Origin: a virus
Lineage: Duplodnaviria > Heunggongvirae > Uroviricota > Caudoviricetes
Length of the DNA stretch: 12,150 bases
Strand: one strand, 5' to 3'
IMG/VR virus record: IMGVR_UViG_2681813004_000020
Coordinates: 1 to 12,150 of that record
Shown here: positions 1 to 11,185 of the stretch, in pieces
How the letters are laid out: each line of letters starts with the position of its first letter
Numbering within the stretch: the first letter of the stretch is position 1
Program-made: the position numbers and the translations under genes
Notes under the pieces: model-generated
Database searches by the model: none
What the model was told of the DNA's origin: nothing
The model's input: only the letters and a program-made list of their open reading frames with translations

Positions 1-1284
1 TTACTTCTTCGCCTCTGCAACCACTTTACTACCCACGCCGCGGTTATTGTATTCCCACATGCGGTTGTAGTTAGTGTCATTCAGATTGCGCTGTATTTCG
101 TCGTTATCATCTACGCTGCCGGTATTACCCGCAAACGGACGATTAGAGATCACCGCATCGGCCCACGGTTTAGCCGTGTTAAAACCTTCGTTGATGGCGC
201 TATCACGGATCACCACCTGACCGTTGGTATTGGCATCAACATCCAGCGAGCGGCCCAGTTGCGCCACACCATCACCGAAAGCATTGAAACGGCTGTTTAC
301 GGCGAGGAAACCGTAGTAAATGTTGGACAGCGTAGCCGGTGCAAACACATACGCTTCTTGCTGAGTACGTGAGTTCACCACGCGGAATTCGGTGTTATCG
401 AACACCACTGCGCCGCGACCAGAAACGATATCCACATCCCCTTCAATGTAGCTGTTGGTCACCAGCGTACGCGGCTGACGGTTGGTTTCCAGACGGTTCT
501 GCACACCGCTGTTGGTGACAAAGAAGGTGTTCTGACGACCGAGAATGTTAACGTTGTTAATCTGTACCTGGTCACCATCAGTACGCAGTGCCACCGCCGG
601 ATGGTTACCTGCATCTACGCTATCGCCCAGCGTGTTTTCGATGGTCAGATTTTGCAGTTGCAGGCCATTGTTTTGTGACCAGAAGACCGCAGAGCAGAGA
701 ACACCGATACTGTCGCTGCGTTTGCTCTGGCAGCTATCGTACATATACCACGCTGGTTTACCTGGCATATATTTGCCGCGCGGGTTGACGTCGTGACGCC
801 AGTCGGCAGGGCTCATGCCACCATCAAGGGAAAGCCCAATCTTCACATCAATCGGTTTTTCACCTGTACCGTACAGAGTAATTCCACCCGGAGCGGCAGG
901 GACATATACCGTTCCCTGATACTCACCAGGCATCACGGCAATATACTGGCGCTTGTTGGTACGCTTGATAATTGCCGCATCTACCGCCGCCTGAATCGTG
1001 GTATGCGTTACACCTTGAGTGCCCGCCGGGCCGACAATAAAGTCAGGTTGCGCAGGCAGGGTAATCGGGGAAGGATTCCACGCTGCAGCACCTGGTGTCA
1101 GGGATGCAAAATAGTGTTGAGCATCGAAATTCTGCGCTTCTTTTGCCGACAGAATCGGGCGAGAAGAGGTACCAGGCGCGGTTTGATCAGAAGGACGTTG
1201 ATCGGGCGGGGTTGAGCTACAGGCGGTCAGCGTCACGCCAAAAGCCAATGCCAGCGCCAGACGGGAAACTGAAAATGTGTTCAC
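1..1284 (-). CDS. ybhC: YbhC, pectinesterase-fold outer-membrane lipoprotein (acyl-CoA thioesterase), the host gene flanking lambda attB
   Basis: 427-codon ORF filling the window start; N-terminus MNTFSVSRLALALAFGVTLTAC has a signal peptide and lipobox Cys; GTG start at 1284..1282, TAA stop at 3..1; sits directly beside the lambda att core, as in E. coli. Confidence 0.85.
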   Translation of the reverse strand: MNTFSVSRLALALAFGVTLTACSSTPPDQRPSDQTAPGTSSRPILSAKEAQNFDAQHYFASLTPGAAAWNPSPITLPAQPDFIVGPAGTQGVTHTTIQAAVDAAIIKRTNKRQYIAVMPGEYQGTVYVPAAPGGITLYGTGEKPIDVKIGLSLDGGMSPADWRHDVNPRGKYMPGKPAWYMYDSCQSKRSDSIGVLCSAVFWSQNNGLQLQNLTIENTLGDSVDAGNHPAVALRTDGDQVQINNVNILGRQNTFFVTNSGVQNRLETNRQPRTLVTNSYIEGDVDIVSGRGAVVFDNTEFRVVNSRTQQEAYVFAPATLSNIYYGFLAVNSRFNAFGDGVAQLGRSLDVDANTNGQVVIRDSAINEGFNTAKPWADAVISNRPFAGNTGSVDDNDEIQRNLNDTNYNRMWEYNNRGVGSKVVAEAKK

Positions 1285-5714: not shown

Positions 5715-5875
5715 TTCTTCCCACTCCGCCACATCGCATTCAGATATTTGTTGTCATTAACAGAACCGAAACTCTTTCTCTTAAGCAATTCCTCTCTCGA
5801 TGGCATTGGCTTTGCGCGTTGGCGAATAATCATTTCTGCCGGAAGAATGCCGGGATTGTATGCAAGTCCTCTCAT
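5711..5875 (-). CDS. Hypothetical small protein, 54 aa ([54 protein letters not shown])
   Basis: ATG at 5875..5873 preceded by GAGGAA; an in-frame upstream ATG at 5893 would give 60 aa; start lies inside copy 1 of the 109-bp tandem duplication. Confidence 0.45.
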
Positions 5876-6049
5876 GGTAAATTCCTCAGTCATTACTGAT
5901 AGCGCCATAGCGTGAGCGGTAATTACGCAGGCGCGGGTCAATTTCTGCCGGAAGAATGCCGGGATTGTATGCAAGTCCTCTCATGGTAAATTCCTCAGTC
6001 ATTACTGATAGCGCCATAGCGTGAGCGGTAATTACGCAGGCGCGGGTCA
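5832..6049. repeat. Perfect tandem duplication, 2 x 109 bp (5832-5940 and 5941-6049), with 5-bp microhomology ATTTC continuing at 6050-6054
   Basis: Base-by-base comparison: the two units are identical; the flanks differ (C at 5831, AGGG at 6055). Confidence 0.95.
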
Positions 6050-6288
6050 ATTTCAGGGAAGTGGGTATATGTGGCTTTGCGGAATGGTCGGATTGATGTC
6101 TGGTAAATTCGCTCGCGTTCTTCTTTCTCTGCAAGCCATATACAATGGCGAAATTCCTTTTCCTCTTTCGTTTCCTGCGGTAGCGACATTATCCGATCGT
6201 AGTTTTTTCTGAATTTATCCAGCACCTCCGATACGGAATTGCCGGAACAGCGGCGCGCGTCATCCGCACCATACAGAGGCGCTGGCAT
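5995..6288 (-). CDS. Hypothetical protein A1, 97 aa (MPAPLYGADDARRCSGNSVSEVL...), paralog of the 8937-9119 gene
   Basis: ATG at 6288 preceded by CAGGAGAAAAC; stop lies inside copy 2 of the 109-bp duplication; first 30 nt identical to the paralog. Confidence 0.6.
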   Translation of the reverse strand: MPAPLYGADDARRCSGNSVSEVLDKFRKNYDRIMSLPQETKEEKEFRHCIWLAEKEERERIYQTSIRPFRKATYTHFPEIDPRLRNYRSRYGAISND

Positions 6289-6861: not shown

Positions 6862-7368
6862 TTAAATTGCGTGAATAGCGTGACGAGGGAAGGGGAGAGT
6901 TACTGGTGCAAAGGGTATATCGTCGTCAAAATCCATCGGAGGTTCGTTGTGTTGTGCTGGTGATGATTGCTGCTGTGGCTTCTGTGATTGCCTGCTGGCT
7001 GCTTGTTGTTTGCTGTCGCCAATTCCGCCAAGCATTTGCATCACGCCATTAATTCCGACATGAACCTCGGTTGTGTAACGGTCTTGCCCTGACTGGTCTT
7101 TCCACTTTCTGGTTCTCAGCATTCCCTCGAAATAAATCTGATCACCTTTTTTCACATACTGCCCCACGACCTCAGCCAGTTTCCCGGATACAGCAACACG
7201 ATGCCATTCAGTCAATTCCTTTTGCTCGCCAGTATTTTTATCTCGCCATTGTTCTGACGTGGCTATTGTCAGGTTAGCGAACGCTGTACCTGATGGTGAG
7301 TATCGAACTTCCGGGTCTTGTCCTACCCGACCAAGGATAATCACCTTATTTACGCCTCTGCTTGCCAT
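6862..7368 (-). CDS. ssb: Single-stranded DNA-binding protein (SSB) with an atypical 15-aa extension after the DDDIPF tip
   Basis: N-terminal [23 protein letters not shown]...[11 protein letters not shown] matches the E. coli SSB OB fold as recalled; Gln/Pro-rich linker; [11 protein letters not shown], then the frame continues [15 protein letters not shown] before TAA. Confidence 0.9.
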
Positions 7369-8076
7369 TTATGCCGCCTGTTTTAGTTCGTTAACTCTGA
7401 TGTTCATTACCTGAACGCATTTAGCCTGCGCCTCCTCATTGCCAGCCATTAATTGCCAGTCACGCTGATAACGCTCGATGAGTTTTTTCTTGTCAGTTTC
7501 TGTTGACGCATAATCGCTGAAGTCTTTCAGGATTTGTTCGCAGTCAACCGATGGAGATTTCTGGTTGGTATTTTCTGGTGATGGTTTGTTATCTGATGCT
7601 GGTATTGCCCATCCCGGCAGCGATGGAGGGAGCCAGTAAAATCCTGTTCCATCCTTGAGTTTTGCCCTGTGCCATCCCTGCTTTTTATCGAGAGATGTTT
7701 GTGCGAAACCTTCCTCAAGGTTATACAGATACCGACCGATTCCCCACTGAACGGCAGCGCGCTTCATTGCACCGGAACGACCACCTTTGACGGCTTCTAC
7801 CTGCGTGTTTTCAGCAGCATCCCATTTGGTTACCCATTCGGAATCAATCTTTATTGATATGCCGCATTCAACGCCGCCGTTGTTGGGAATATCGCGGTAT
7901 TCATTGCGCCATCCTGCTTTGCCGCAAACATCGTCCAGGCGTTTCATGATTGCCCGGTTCGTTACATAAGCCAGCACCATAGCCCACACTTTGCCATCGC
8001 GTGTTTTACCGCTTTGCTGTATTCGCCATTCGATATCTTCAGGGCTGAATGGCTCATCGAATTTATTCAAATCCAT
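7369..8076 (-). CDS. Rad52-type single-strand annealing protein, 235 aa
   Basis: Motif GAMKRAAVQWGIGRYLYNL resembles the Rad52 signature GLKRALRSFGNALG; GAGGTGA SD; directly upstream of ssb. Confidence 0.65.
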   Translation of the reverse strand: MDLNKFDEPFSPEDIEWRIQQSGKTRDGKVWAMVLAYVTNRAIMKRLDDVCGKAGWRNEYRDIPNNGGVECGISIKIDSEWVTKWDAAENTQVEAVKGGRSGAMKRAAVQWGIGRYLYNLEEGFAQTSLDKKQGWHRAKLKDGTGFYWLPPSLPGWAIPASDNKPSPENTNQKSPSVDCEQILKDFSDYASTETDKKKLIERYQRDWQLMAGNEEAQAKCVQVMNIRVNELKQAA

Positions 8077-8084
8077 AATTCACC

Positions 8085-8255
8085 TCAGAATGGACACGGC
8101 CCAAGGAAATAACGCTGATTTAATACTTCAACTCGGGACAAATTAAGGCATACCCGCATTCCTTCGCGGTCGCCATTATGGCGATACCAGAGAGCTTTCT
8201 GCGTGTACATGCGTCTCTGTAACTTGCTCTCCTTCACTGTGGTTGCAAGTGACAT
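8085..8255 (-). CDS. Hypothetical small protein, 56 aa (MSLATTVKESKLQRRMYTQKALWYRHNGDREGMRVCLNLSRVEVLNQRYFLGPCPF), paralog of the 10416-10604 gene
   Basis: Manual translation; GAAGGAGATATTC-ATG (strong SD); stop overlaps the SD of the Rad52-type gene; aligns over its length with the 62-aa protein in the other module (shared L-x-R, A-x-W/Y-x-R-x-x-GD, CL, N-x-R-x-FL, terminal PF). Confidence 0.55.
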   Translation of the reverse strand: MSLATTVKESKLQRRMYTQKALWYRHNGDREGMRVCLNLSRVEVLNQRYFLGPCPF

Positions 8256-8334
8256 GAATATCTCCTTCGTTACCGATTAATTCTTTCATCTGACGAATGA
8301 ATTCTTCGTCTGACCAGTTATCTGTAAAACTCAT
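8176..8334 (-). CDS. Alternative small ORF, 52 aa (MSFTDNWSDEEFIRQMKELIGNEGDIHVTCNHSEGEQVTETHVHAESSLVSP), overlapping the 56-aa gene in another frame
   Basis: ATG forms an ATGA overlap with the kil-like stop, mirroring the junction in the other module, but has a poor SD and overlaps the better-supported 56-aa gene by 80 nt. Confidence 0.2.
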   Translation of the reverse strand: MSFTDNWSDEEFIRQMKELIGNEGDIHVTCNHSEGEQVTETHVHAESSLVSP

Positions 8335-8483
8335 TTCCTGCGATACCACGGATGGTTGATAGCTGATTTCATCGCTTTATTTGCTTCAAGCCACATTTTT
8401 GAATCACCAATAAATCTGGCTATTACTGCTTTGTTCTGTGCAGCACGAAGCATCTGGTGATTGATGGCTATTTCATTGCGCAT
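8331..8483 (-). CDS. Kil-like small protein (paralog), 50 aa
   Basis: MRNEIAINHQMLRAAQNKAVIARFIGDSKMWLEANKAMK... aligns with the other module's Kil (IATFIGDEKMFREAVEA versus IARFIGDSKMWLEANKA); GGAGG SD 5 nt upstream; start overlaps the 3' end of the cIII-like gene. Confidence 0.6.
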   Translation of the reverse strand: MRNEIAINHQMLRAAQNKAVIARFIGDSKMWLEANKAMKSAINHPWYRRK

Positions 8484-8602: not shown

Positions 8603-8664
8603 GGGTAACTCCTTATATTTGATTGCATAACGAAAACGCCTCGAGTGAAGCGTTATTGGTATGC

Positions 8665-8692
8665 ATATAAAAAAGCCCTCACACTGGAGGGC
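8665..8692 (-). terminator. Intrinsic terminator inside repeat copy 1
   Basis: Minus strand GCCCTC-CAGTGT-GAGGGC followed by TTTTTTATAT; a second weaker hairpin AACGCTTC-ACTC-GAGGCGTT then TTCGTT lies at plus 8635-8654. Confidence 0.6.
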
Positions 8693-8785
8693 AAAGAAGA
8701 TTTCCAATAATCAGAACAAGTCGGCTCCTGTTTAGTTACGAGCGACATTGCTCACATAGCAGACTCGCAAATCTGCTATAGGTGC

Positions 8786-8944
8786 TTATTCGCATCGCAT
8801 GACAACATCAAATTTTTCGAGATTACTTTGTCGCAACAATCCTTCTTCTACGCGGTCAGCTTTTCTATAATTATCAAATTCGAAATGTTTAATTACTTCT
8901 TTCGTTTCTCGCTCTATAACTTCAACAATGTATTTCTTATTCAT
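8786..8944 (-). CDS. Hypothetical small protein, 52 aa (MNKKYIVEVIERETKEVIKHFEFDNYRKADRVEEGLLRQSNLEKFDVVMRCE), copy 1
   Basis: Manual translation; ATG overlaps the stop of the upstream gene (GATGAATAA); weak SD; duplicated exactly at 11027-11185. Confidence 0.4.
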   Translation of the reverse strand: MNKKYIVEVIERETKEVIKHFEFDNYRKADRVEEGLLRQSNLEKFDVVMRCE

Positions 8945-9119
8945 CGTTCTCATCTTTTAACGCGAGTTGTATATCGCGTCGGTACATCCGTTCTGCTTTT
9001 GTTTCTGGTGGCAGATCAATAAACGTGTCGAAAATGTTTTTGATATTTTCCAGCACCTCCGCCTTGGAGCTACCGGAGCAATTGCGCGGGTCATCCGCAC
9101 CATACAGAGGCGCTGGCAT
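8937..9119 (-). CDS. Hypothetical protein A2, 60 aa (MPAPLYGADDPRNCSGSSKAEVL...), paralog of the 5995-6288 gene
   Basis: ATG at 9119; first 30 nt identical to A1, then diverging; TAA stop overlaps the start of the 52-aa ORF. Confidence 0.55.
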   Translation of the reverse strand: MPAPLYGADDPRNCSGSSKAEVLENIKNIFDTFIDLPPETKAERMYRRDIQLALKDENDE

Positions 9120-9142: not shown

Positions 9143-9730
9143 TCAGAAAGGAGGGTAATCGTTCTGGCTGTAACCATAATCATCTGCATGATTCTGGCTT
9201 ACGTTTTTAGAGCGATTGTCTTTATCTTTGAGATTGGCAACCATGTTGGCGATAGTTTCTGGTTGCTTGCCTTCTGCCTTTTCTTTAAGGGTTTGACCTG
9301 TTTGTGCAATAAACGGGATGCGTATTTCCATCTGGTAGCTGTCTGCGCCAGTCTTTTTGTTTGTGGTTAATACTTTCTGGAGCACTAACCCGATTTTCTT
9401 TCCATGAAATTCAGGTGCAACAAATTTACTGGCGGAAACCATATGCTGCGTTAATTGTCCAATCCCGGCACACCCCATCATGGCGTGAACGACATTTGCG
9501 CCAAATTTGTTTTCCGTGCCGTCATTTTTCTGAACACAGACGCTAAGATATTGGATTTTACGTCCGTCGTCGGATTCGCCAGAAAACTCAATAAATTTGG
9601 CTCCTTTTTCTGATTGCTTTAGTTCTGCTTCAGTAATGGTAATGATATGAGCACCAGTTTCGTTAATAAAACCACCTTGCCCTGCGGTCAGTGCTGCTTC
9701 TTCGTTATAAGTAAAAATCACGTTGCTCAT
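9143..9730 (-). CDS. Putative cognate ssDNA-binding partner of Sak4 (DUF669-like?), 195 aa, with an SSB-like C-terminal tail DYPPF
   Basis: ATGA overlap with the Sak4 stop; C-terminus ...HADDYGYSQNDYPPF resembles the acidic SSB tip DDDIPF; family assignment by context and tail only. Confidence 0.5.
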   Translation of the reverse strand: MSNVIFTYNEEAALTAGQGGFINETGAHIITITEAELKQSEKGAKFIEFSGESDDGRKIQYLSVCVQKNDGTENKFGANVVHAMMGCAGIGQLTQHMVSASKFVAPEFHGKKIGLVLQKVLTTNKKTGADSYQMEIRIPFIAQTGQTLKEKAEGKQPETIANMVANLKDKDNRSKNVSQNHADDYGYSQNDYPPF

Positions 9731-10407
9731 GCGGCGTTTTCCTTAATTTGATGAACATTATTGATGCCGTAGTAATCACAAACAGTGGCATCGACGAAAG
9801 AGAGATCGTTATCAATCTCATTGGAATCAAACATTCCCATTGGGGATTTAACAGTGTCTGCACCGTTGTTTTTTGTGGTGAAAAAGAACTGGTCATCACG
9901 GGTAAGGGTGCGAAGAACTATAGTAAACATGCCTTCGACAGTGATTTTCTCGTCCAGCATTTTGCCGATAGTCTTCATTTTCACACGCCCCATAGGAGTT
10001 TCTTCGGTGTGCGCAAGAAAATAGACTCTCAGGTCATCAGGCGCATCCTGCGCAGCCTTAATGACCTCCCATGCGTGACGGCCTATCTCAGTAAATTTAT
10101 CAAACGATTTTTCTTCTGAGCGGCGCATAAACTCATTGCTCATCACATACTGGAAGTCATCAACAATAACGATTCTTTTCCCGTATTCGTGAGCACGCTT
10201 AATTACGGCAACTATTACGTCCCATTTGTCAGTGGTAACTACGGTTCCTTTTTTTGCTCTGGCATCCCATGCAAGCCAGTCTTTTGATTTAAATGGTAGC
10301 GGCTTGCCTATTGGTTTTATAAGTATTGCTTCCTCTGGATTGATATTTCTCATGCTGGTTGATTTTCCGGTGCCAGACTCACCGAGTATTAATGTCGCAG
10401 TTCCCAT
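9727..10407 (-). CDS. Sak4-like RecA-core P-loop ATPase (AAA_24-type phage recombination protein), 226 aa
   Basis: Walker A GESGTGKS at residues 9-16, Walker B-like IVIVDD; size and position downstream of kil, where lambda has its Red recombination genes; GAGG SD. Confidence 0.7.
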   Translation of the reverse strand: MGTATLILGESGTGKSTSMRNINPEEAILIKPIGKPLPFKSKDWLAWDARAKKGTVVTTDKWDVIVAVIKRAHEYGKRIVIVDDFQYVMSNEFMRRSEEKSFDKFTEIGRHAWEVIKAAQDAPDDLRVYFLAHTEETPMGRVKMKTIGKMLDEKITVEGMFTIVLRTLTRDDQFFFTTKNNGADTVKSPMGMFDSNEIDNDLSFVDATVCDYYGINNVHQIKENAA

Positions 10408-10415
10408 AATTTGCC

Positions 10416-10604
10416 TCAGAATGGTAATTCGGATGGGGAGGAAAGAAACTCGCGCTCATTCATGCGCTCTCTTTGTGCCTGCCATAAACAAAGTTGTTTC
10501 TTTGATTTATCTCCCGCTTTACGCCAGTAACGAGCCTCAGCAATGTGATATTCTCTTTTTAATCGACTTAACTCTGGAGTTTTCGCCAGTTCTACCGGAA
10601 TCAT
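10416..10604 (-). CDS. Hypothetical small protein, 62 aa (MIPVELAKTPELSRLKREYHIAEARYWRKAGDKSKKQLCLWQAQRERMNEREFLSSPSELPF)
   Basis: Internal ATG with GGAGG SD and an ATGA overlap with the kil stop; paralogous to the 56-aa protein at 8085-8255. Confidence 0.5.
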   Translation of the reverse strand: MIPVELAKTPELSRLKREYHIAEARYWRKAGDKSKKQLCLWQAQRERMNEREFLSSPSELPF

Positions 10605-10714
10605 TTTGACCTCCATTTCCTGTAGGCTTCGACGGCCTCACGAAACATCTTTTCATCGCCAATAAAAGTGGCGATAGTGAATTTAGTCTGGATAGCCATA
10701 AGTGTTTTATCCAT
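10601..10714 (-). CDS. kil: Kil (FtsZ-targeting host-killing peptide), 37 aa
   Basis: MDKTLMAIQTKFTIATFIGDEKMFREAVEAYRKWRSK; ATG overlaps the last codons of cIII as in lambda; the ORF-track version includes an unsupported N-terminal extension. Confidence 0.6.
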   Translation of the reverse strand: MDKTLMAIQTKFTIATFIGDEKMFREAVEAYRKWRSK

Positions 10715-10847
10715 TTTTTGGAACTCCTGGCTGATTAAGTATGTCGATAAGGCGTTTCCATCCGTCACGTAATTTACGTGTGATTCGCTCAAGTAAAGAT
10801 TCGGAAGGGCAGCCAGCAACAGGCCACCCTGCAATGGCATATTGCAT
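10707..10847 (-). CDS. cIII: CIII (FtsH/HflB protease inhibitor), lambda type, 46 aa
   Basis: MQYAIAGWPVAGCPSESLLERITRKLRDGWKRLIDILNQPGVPKNG matches lambda CIII as recalled over its whole length; AAGGAG SD 7 nt upstream; lambda CIII is recalled as about 8 residues longer. Confidence 0.8.
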   Translation of the reverse strand: MQYAIAGWPVAGCPSESLLERITRKLRDGWKRLIDILNQPGVPKNG

Positions 10848-10905
10848 GGTGTGCTCCTTATTTATACATAACGAAAACGCCTCGAGTGAAGCGTTATTGG
10901 TATGC

Positions 10906-10933
10906 ATATAAAAAAGCCCTCACACTGGAGGGC
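10906..10933 (-). terminator. Intrinsic terminator inside repeat copy 2
   Basis: Same GCCCTC-CAGTGT-GAGGGC plus U-tract as in copy 1. Confidence 0.6.
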
Positions 10934-11026
10934 AAAGAAGATTTCCAATAATCAGAACAAGTCGGCTCCTGTTTAGTTACGAGCGACATTGCTCACATAG
11001 CAGACTCGCAAATCTGCTATAGGTGC

Positions 11027-11185
11027 TTATTCGCATCGCATGACAACATCAAATTTTTCGAGATTACTTTGTCGCAACAATCCTTCTTCTACGCGGTCAG
11101 CTTTTCTATAATTATCAAATTCGAAATGTTTAATTACTTCTTTCGTTTCTCGCTCTATAACTTCAACAATGTATTTCTTATTCAT
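11027..11185 (-). CDS. Hypothetical small protein, 52 aa, copy 2 (one extra in-frame ATG upstream)
   Basis: Identical to 8786-8944; here preceded by GGGGAAGA, and the ATG overlaps the stop of the 98-aa gene. Confidence 0.4.
   Translation of the reverse strand: MNKKYIVEVIERETKEVIKHFEFDNYRKADRVEEGLLRQSNLEKFDVVMRCE

Follow-up and report, generated by a model that had tools for sequence, protein, structure and literature searches.

An Arf-like minigene probably overprints the start of an HkaM-family gene in a lambdoid early-left operon

Two small overlapping reading frames between kil and the recombinase gene of a lambdoid prophage are most probably two known genes: an Arf-like minigene (frame A) with an unconstrained tail that overprints the start of an HkaM-family gene (gene B). 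Codon-position and divergence patterns place selection on the first ~25 codons of frame A and on all of gene B, and each gene occurs without the other in related loci. The stretch is found in 854 of 5,426 complete E. coli genomes (about one in six), for which RefSeq annotates either nothing or gene B alone in the 254-nt gap between kil and the Rad52-type gene; the value for annotation lies in identifying which codons of this gap really code for protein.

Layout of the kil-to-recombinase interval

The window (the whole stretch analysed, 12,150 nt) opens in E. coli ybhC (1–1284, minus strand), followed by a lambda-type integrase and then by the early-left operon of a lambdoid prophage, every gene of which lies on the minus strand. 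Two recombination modules succeed one another within this one operon. Module 1 comprises cIII, kil, two small ORFs, a Rad52/22-type annealing protein, SSB, an exonuclease and abc2; module 2 comprises a lambda-like cIII and kil, a 62-aa ORF, an AAA_24/Sak4 recombinase, an HK620-type SSB and abc2. The anti-RecBCD gene abc2 is full-length in module 1 and truncated in module 2. The features that bear on the small genes are as follows.

8331..8483, minus strand: kil of module 1, 50 aa (Pfam Lambda_Kil, E=1.7e-20; phrog_2055, E=2e-35)
8257..8334, minus strand: frame A codons 1–26, Arf-family N-terminal core MSFTDNWSDEEFIRQMKELIGNEGDI (phrog_2123; codon-position differences)
8176..8256, minus strand: frame A codons 27–52 and stop, probable run-on tail over the start of gene B (pN versus pS; changes by codon position)
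8262..8267, minus strand: putative Shine-Dalgarno AAGGAG of gene B, within frame A and 6 nt upstream of the B ATG (reading of the sequence)
8085..8255, minus strand: gene B, 56-aa HkaM-family protein (phrog_1723, E=9.4e-36)
7369..8076, minus strand: Rad52/22-type single-strand annealing protein of module 1 (Pfam Rad52_Rad22, E=5e-26)
6862..7368, minus strand: bacterial-type SSB of module 1 (translation; comparison with the Sf6, ES18 and mEpX2 SSBs)
10601..10714, minus strand: lambda-type kil of module 2, 37 aa from MDKTLMAIQ (Pfam Lambda_Kil, E=5.6e-21)
10416..10604, minus strand: 62-aa HkaM of module 2, homologue of gene B (tblastn to HK620 hkaM; phrog_1723)
9727..10407, minus strand: Sak4-type (AAA_24) recombinase of module 2 (Pfam AAA_24, E=5e-7)
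9143..9730, minus strand: HK620-type, HkaK-like SSB of module 2, C-terminus NDYPPF (translation)

Frame A runs for 52 codons, from an ATG at 8334 that shares the sequence ATGA with the stop of the module 1 kil, to its end at 8176. The ATG of gene B (56 codons) follows that of frame A by 79 nt, which puts B at +1 relative to A, and the frames overlap by 80 nt (8176–8255). The equivalent gene of module 2 is coupled to kil in the same way, its ATG at 10604 forming ATGA with the kil stop (10601–10603) and a GGAGG lying 5 nt upstream. A 66-codon version of this 62-aa ORF is also open, from an ATG at 10616; ES18 gp50 and HK620 HkaM start at the position equivalent to 10604. The kil assignment in module 2 comes from a Lambda_Kil match to residues 44–74 of a 79-codon ORF, and the 37-aa reading equals ES18 kil in length. 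The coordinates, the two ATGA junctions and the 80-nt overlap given in a preliminary description of this DNA are all borne out by the ORF list and the sequence. As a side observation, the phage SSBs of both modules end in IPF or PPF.

In every lineage the start codon of frame A overlaps with the stop codon of the gene before it, be that kil, KilR or cIII, in the form ATGA, GTGA or TAGTG, and in the lineages compared no well-spaced Shine-Dalgarno precedes it; together these features point to termination–reinitiation as the mode of frame A translation. Ribosomes finishing kil would thus pass to gene A at the ATGA. As the A core is not closed by a stop codon, ribosomes would read on through 26 further codons, entering gene B in the −1 register relative to B. 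Gene B itself would be translated from its own AAGGAG/ATG inside frame A. This AAGGAG is kept in lineage L110, and GAGGA substitutes for it in the Pseudocitrobacter lineage L093. At the other end of gene B, the TGA stop together with the next two bases, GG, belongs to the ribosome-binding site (GAGG) that serves the recombinase gene in nearly all lineages.

Selection across frame A, gene B and their overlap

Scanning IMG/VR viral contigs with an alignment of gene B gave at least 80 loci, all with 100% identical copies of the gene. We set these 80 loci aside, as they offer no divergence and are biased for a comparison of A with B, and replaced them with a species-level genome scan, exact-protein look-ups and a census anchored on the N terminus of A. 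The lineages compared (the window, L110 and L093) were retrieved through gene B and so are unbiased towards frame A. The anchored census, which used the N-terminal DNA of A, recovered 118 IMG/VR loci; A and B are both present in 72.

Over the first 20 codons of frame A, pN is 0.06–0.20 against a pS of 0.34–0.87 among the window, L110 and L093, in tests limited to three or four diverged lineages and to regions only 60–78 nt long. In one of the lineage comparisons the A core has a pN of 0.06 against a pS of 0.83, its differences falling 3/0/10 by codon position. Gene B gives a pN/pS of about 0.2/0.6–0.9 between lineages. When the overlap is read in frame B, the values (pN ~0.2, pS 0.9–1.0) resemble those of the part of B that lies outside it; read in frame A, pN (0.35–0.42) equals or exceeds pS (0.10–0.34). 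Differences within the overlap cluster at the third position of B codons (4/5/15 and 5/6/17 by B codon position between lineages), and the third codon position of B is the first codon position of A in this region.

The 72 census loci that carry both genes behave alike. Changes fall 1/1/12 by codon position in the part of A that lies before B (p=8e-5), 6/2/14 by B codon position in the overlap (p=0.003) and 10/7/20 in the B-only part. This pattern of codon positions and pN/pS argues that the first ~25 codons of A and the whole of B are under purifying selection. It argues equally that the last 26 codons of A are unconstrained as protein, their sequence being dictated by B.

The behaviour of the tail also bears on true dual coding, in which the whole 52-aa frame A would be functional and both frames selected in the overlap. 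Frame A is indeed open for 52–56 codons in each of the five lineages that carry overlapping A and B pairs (window/Sf6; mEpX2/HK542; L110; the Pseudocitrobacter pair L093/L114; and L128–L136, which carries a 62-aa-type B). The window, Sf6, HK97, mEpX2 and HK542 are also near-identical over the initial 60 nt of the overlap. This near-identity among E. coli phages nevertheless reaches across kil, as fits recent mosaic exchange, and the tail differs between lineages in both sequence and length (52, 53, 54 or 56 aa). Three loci lacking gene A altogether (L109, L112 and L094) likewise have this frame open over ~40 codons. Dual coding should hold back synonymous change in the two frames alike where they overlap; no such signature is seen there, changes falling mainly at the third position of B codons, with a frame A pN no lower than pS. 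The third codon position of A takes just 2 of the 22 polymorphic changes. We therefore regard selection on both frames as very unlikely, and favour a short selected core followed by a run-on tail.

The preliminary description had left three readings of the pair side by side (overlapping genes, an indel-split gene or a frameshift site). The first of these is the right one, with the amendment that only the first ~25 of the 52 A codons behave as selected coding sequence. It had also allowed that the 52-aa frame might be spurious; the frame is open in all five lineages with both genes and its core is conserved, the lack of constraint being confined to the tail.

Two gene families, their separate occurrence and their fusions

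Frame A matches a PHROG family of its own (phrog_2123, E=7e-42) and carries the N-terminal core typical of the Arf family, [WF]-x-D-[DE]-x-F-I-[RA]-x-[MI]. Scanning viral contigs with the Pseudocitrobacter A protein yielded 56 loci that have one core, W-[SDTG]-D-[DE]-[AE]-F-I-R-[LQ]-M-x-[DE]-[LMV], on unrelated tails; one group among them has the tail ...VNLAAERQNPVISWAEFAGDFT. The connection to P22 Arf runs through homologues such as the L137 protein (tail ...VNLAAERQNQVISMAEFAGDFT), which matches the P22 Arf profile (phrog_2445, E=1.7e-19) and is 52% identical to Arf. Residues 1–25 of frame A align to this homologue with 44% identity (BLASTP, E=3e-7). A direct match of frame A to phrog_2445 is weak (E=0.037, residues 5–26). 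The conserved C-terminal half of Arf (NLAAERQNPVISW.EFAG) is absent from frame A, where residues 27–52 read HVTCNHSEGEQVTETHVHAESSLVSP. From these alignments, frame A has the N-terminal core of Arf without its C-terminal half.

The AlphaFold2 (AF2) prediction for frame A agrees with such a division, with one helix (residues 9–19) followed by a low-confidence tail (pLDDT ~50). The working part of gene A would be its first ~25 residues, forming an acidic amphipathic helix, W-S-D-E-E-F-I-R-Q-M-K-E-L. The core is carried on varied tails elsewhere: true Arf tails (phrog_2445, E=2e-19), 32–35-aa acidic forms upstream of RecT, and tails that run into a 62-aa-type B. By way of illustration only, since the loci were found by peptide pattern, 12 distinct DNA sequences encode the same 13-residue core. 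The Arf family is in this way recognizable by a 13-residue N-terminal core on interchangeable tails.

P22 Arf has been suggested as a possible DNA mimic, being small and acidic (PMC9836394). From P22 genetics, Arf is reported to aid Erf-dependent recombination and phage growth, and is described as a non-essential aid to recombination (PMC12315714). By analogy, frame A would act like P22 Arf as a non-essential recombination helper, an extrapolation from the 25-residue core to a protein that has no counterpart of the C-terminal half of P22 Arf.

An alternative role for frame A would be that of a coupling or leader ORF, passing ribosomes from kil or tuning initiation of B, with a functionless peptide. 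Its start overlapping the preceding stop in every lineage, without a proper Shine-Dalgarno, and the placement of the B ribosome-binding site within A would both suit such an arrangement. Against it, the amino acids of the A core are conserved while third codon positions have diverged. The core is also common to homologues of P22 Arf, itself reported to aid recombination (PMC12315714), and A-like genes are present where no B follows. Nor is there a conserved RNA structure between the two starts. A fold of the single sequence pairs the A and B starts (z=-2.7); a fold of the four-lineage alignment, at -2.8 kcal/mol, does not conserve this pairing, and we rejected it as a candidate. A leader with a functionless peptide is accordingly a very improbable account of frame A, and the Arf-like minigene is the reading that we retain.

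Gene B belongs to the HkaM family (phrog_1723). The 56-aa and 62-aa proteins of the two modules align without gaps over 52 residues at 33% identity (BLASTP, E=8e-10). Both cover the family profile from end to end: gene B residues 1–56 align to profile positions 3–58 (E=9.4e-36), and residues 6–63 of the 66-aa module 2 ORF to positions 1–58 (E=2e-33). The module 2 62-aa protein is 98.4% identical to HK620 hkaM (tblastn). Judged on sequence, the two proteins are true homologues and real genes, as the preliminary description had proposed. The family is a small one: 34 matches in all at E<=0.001, mostly of 54–73 aa, came from searching 1.84 billion representatives with the family HMM. Every full-length match in this exhaustive search has a Pro-Phe C terminus, and P55 and F56 are invariant in two HkaM-family alignments. 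Since synonymous variation occurs at both codons (CCA/CCG for Pro, TTC/TTT for Phe), the dipeptide is selected as protein.

Gene B is predicted (AF2) with confidence as a two-helix hairpin (pLDDT 91.5; helices 7–27 and 30–51). Foldseek against the PDB returned generic helical hairpins and designed minibinders, none at E<=0.001, and sequence-profile searches of frame A and gene B against Pfam, NCBIfam and the PDB gave no meaningful match. Relatives of gene B lie directly upstream of Rad52-type, Erf-type and AAA_24/Sak4 recombinases alike, recombinase types being taken from precomputed Pfam labels (tblastn labels were ambiguous, the references sharing domains, and were left out). This position is occupied in both modules of the window, in ES18, HK97 and Sf6, and at loci L093–L095 and L105–L113. 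As the gene precedes Rad52, Erf and Sak4 types, a common partner is likelier than one specific recombinase; gene B may be a small adaptor or inhibitor acting on a target common to recombinase types, for example SSB or a host factor. What defines this orphan family is its invariant C-terminal Pro-Phe together with strict linkage to a recombinase of any type.

The two genes also occur apart. Gene B stands without A in module 2, in ES18, in Kluyvera and Yersinia similis prophages and at several Salmonella and metagenomic loci, either coupled to kil or cIII or following an untranslated gap. Its N terminus (LA.T..ES.LQRR) is kept where frame A is absent, as in module 2, ES18 and the Yersinia and Kluyvera prophages. 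Among A-like genes without B are a 35-aa form followed by a 102-aa gene and RecT, and forms of 32–34 aa. At L165 a 34-aa A-like gene adjoins a 60-aa B gene, the overlap consisting of ATGA alone. On the sequence evidence, A and B are two independent small genes of the lambdoid early-left operon.

The HK97 annotation has an 83-codon ORF (gp42.1) and an in-frame 58-codon ORF, and the long ORF joins A residues 1–43 to B residues 19–56. The stretch concerned, CATGTCACACGCGAG, holds two extra bases (in parentheses) relative to other genomes: CATGT(C)ACACGC(G)AG against CATGTACACGCAG. A search of IMG/VR finds this insertion pattern a single time, in HK97's own genome, which is also the one fused locus among the 118 of the A-anchored census. 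A second fusion, of 82 aa and at nearly the same spot as that of HK97, has ACACGCAG changed to ACCTCAG (net -1) in one E. coli lineage (P0030, listed in 36 index blocks), a set of assemblies with an HK97-like Erf/Abc2 module. The remaining fused proteins in the protein database are found in 1–3 contigs each and have differing junctions, a scatter that indels introduced in sequencing or assembly would produce. All fusions lose the conserved B N terminus. Since that N terminus is conserved in distant relatives that lack A, the fusions are derived, not ancestral, and the comparison of sequences identifies the HK97 long ORF as a secondary fusion. The HK97 reference ORFs gp42 and gp42.1 thus rest on a private 2-nt insertion. 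Separately, the fused A–B′ proteins of HK97 and the P0030 lineage indicate that phages can at least tolerate a fusion.

These loci bear on the two other readings of the preliminary description. Were A and B the halves of an ancestral ~80-aa gene broken by an indel, with the module 1 gene now decaying, the single long ORF of HK97 could represent the intact form. Against this, the N terminus and start of B are conserved in A-lacking relatives at 33–52% identity, and the split layout is intact in four diverged lineages with both parts under purifying selection. The existence of A alone, of B alone and of adjacent relatives sharing ATGA leaves an indel-split ancestral gene unsupported, and we judge it extremely improbable. 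The single longer ORF that the preliminary description had suggested seeking in homologues exists in HK97 and one E. coli lineage, in both as a secondary fusion without the B N terminus.

The same ORFs, joined at nearly the same spot in HK97 and P0030, might be taken as a natural counterpart of a programmed +1 (or -2) frameshift from A into B, producing an ~80-aa fusion. On reading the A-frame codons of the overlap, we saw no slippery sequence, no stop-codon, CUU-UGA-type or CCC-UGA-type site and no rare-codon +1 motif. A conserved trans-frame product was not found among the fused proteins, which are rare and varied in their junctions, and any such product of the HK97 type would delete the conserved B N terminus. 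A frameshift site is scarcely plausible on these grounds, and two separately translated genes remain the preferred account.

Comparison with known systems

The Pro-Phe end of gene B resembles the tip of E. coli SSB (DDDIPF) and that of the HK620-type SSB (NDYPPF). Sak4 depends on the latter for binding to ssDNA coated with SSB (PMC5928155), and the former is described as the general docking motif for SSB partners (PMC5872125). A speculative idea, which we consider rather unlikely, is that HkaM-family proteins mimic the C-terminal tip of SSB, a rigid hairpin presenting a free, invariant x-Pro-Phe-COOH. If true, the phage recombinase or host partners of SSB could receive such an end in the pocket that binds the SSB tail, and mimicry would explain why the gene keeps company with three recombinase families unrelated to one another. 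A second SSB-tail-like peptide may be the acidic core of Arf (DFDDDEFI in P22, WSDEEFI in frame A). The Arf core and the HkaM Pro-Phe give inexpensive points of entry for studying the accessory factors of phage recombination.

With lambda Gam, gene B has map position alone in common, lying after kil and before the annealing-protein gene. Placement in the lambda gam slot, as first described, therefore holds as a matter of position and does not extend to homology: neither gene B nor frame A has a Pfam or NCBIfam match, Gam included, and a 56-aa hairpin is not Gam-like. The full-length abc2 of module 1 means that an anti-RecBCD role is already covered there.

HK620 HkaM and ES18 gp50 are closer relatives, sharing with gene B the same profile, the place upstream of a recombinase and the Pro-Phe end. 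The gene order of module 2 matches that of the HK620 module (PMC5928155). Gene B differs from HkaM in being of a 56-aa subtype, 33% identical, and in its upstream neighbour, an Arf-like gene that overlaps it, where the HkaM gene of module 2 is coupled to kil. The label 'arf', first given to HkaM for its map position, was later replaced and the protein counted as an orphan. In HK620, sak4 and ssb as a pair sufficed for all the oligonucleotide recombineering activity seen with the whole module, hkaM included (PMC5928155). With that pair fully active by itself, there is no sign of an HkaM contribution to strand annealing.

P22 Arf (47 aa, phrog_2445) and frame A are both small and acidic, and both lie after kil and before the recombinase. 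They have the core [WF]-x-D-[DE]-x-F-I in common, linked via intermediates (MSVAERWDDDAFIRLM...NLAAERQNQVISMAEFAGDFT). They part company beyond it, Arf continuing into its C-terminal half NLAAERQNPVISWDEFAG where frame A has the tail dictated by B. A relative of frame A (P0016) is already named 'accessory recombination function protein' in the database.

The nearest counterparts of the pair are in Shigella phage Sf6 and related phages. In mEpX2 both ORFs are annotated, as gp35 (A) and gp34 (B); in HK542 both are intact and frame A alone is annotated. HK022 gp38 and HK97 gp42.1/gp42 are counterparts grouped with the Sf6 pair, HK97 departing from the window by the two extra bases that fuse the frames and are private to its record. 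Sf6 is 99% identical to the window in DNA over 486 nt: its gene 30 is frame A and its gene 29 is gene B, overlapping ORFs of equal lengths and an equal 79-nt offset in the same kil–recombinase interval, with no substantive difference between the two small-gene pairs. The gene pair is thus an ordinary one, already annotated elsewhere, and not a new kind of system.

Two recombination modules in tandem

The second recombination module of the prophage, cIII-kil-hkaM-sak4-ssb-abc2', is bracketed by the two copies of a perfect direct repeat, and its abc2 is truncated after 60 of 97 codons (window 8937-9119). With the repeat flanking module 2, the prophage thus has two different recombination modules in tandem. 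A second perfect repeat, this one a tandem duplication, lies at the 3' end of the module 1 abc2, generating two ORFs with 36 residues in common.

Window 8626-8925 and 10867-11166: perfect 300-nt direct repeat, spacing 2,241 nt
Window 5832-5940 and 5941-6049: perfect 109-nt tandem duplication of the abc2 3' end and downstream sequence
Window 5995-6288: abc2 of module 1, its 3' end inside the 109-nt duplication

Among complete E. coli genomes, coverage of the window never exceeds 60%. The tandem arrangement could have arisen when two phages recombined unequally; an assembly artefact is the less likely cause.

Fusions and repeats in frame A and gene B

The HK97 ORFs gp42.1 and gp42 (L001, the HK97 locus, 1727-1978; L170) are underlain by two extra bases, which are absent from every other IMG/VR contig and represent a mutation private to HK97 or else an error left by old sequencing. 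These bases have influenced both PHROG and RefSeq annotation. A natural fusion of 82 residues, joining the core of frame A (the Arf-like minigene) to the C-terminal two-thirds of gene B (the HkaM-family gene), is present in E. coli assemblies L101-L104, with the junction changing ACACGCAG to ACCTCAG. It is listed by 36 contig-index blocks, and its context is in every case an HK97-like Erf/Abc2 module. In certain frame A copies from Salmonella and E. coli (proteins P0001 and P0022; MSFTDNWSDEEFIRQMKEFIRQMKEFIRQMKELIGN...), an in-frame tandem repeat gives two or three occurrences of the core heptad EFIRQMK.

Annotation of the interval and of module 2 starts

In some complete E. coli genomes, all 254 nt of the kil-to-Rad52 interval are without RefSeq annotation; in others, the 56-aa gene is the only call there. 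The mechanical cIII and kil ORFs of module 2 begin well 5' of their likely true starts. Their 134-nt overlap was rejected as a real gene overlap, being an ORF-calling artefact of listed starts placed too far upstream.

L290 (NZ_CP018995.1) 616-869: unannotated kil-to-Rad52 interval
Window 10707-10907: mechanical cIII ORF of module 2, likely true start MQYAIAG... at 10847
Window 10601-10840: mechanical kil ORF of module 2, likely true start MDKTLMAIQ... at 10714

The SSB tip of module 1

The module 1 SSB (window 6862-7368) has an internal SSB tip motif of 10 residues followed by 15 additional residues, a capping that might alter partner binding. The same organization, an internal motif plus an extension, occurs in mEpX2 gp32, whereas the Sf6 and ES18 SSBs terminate directly after IPF.
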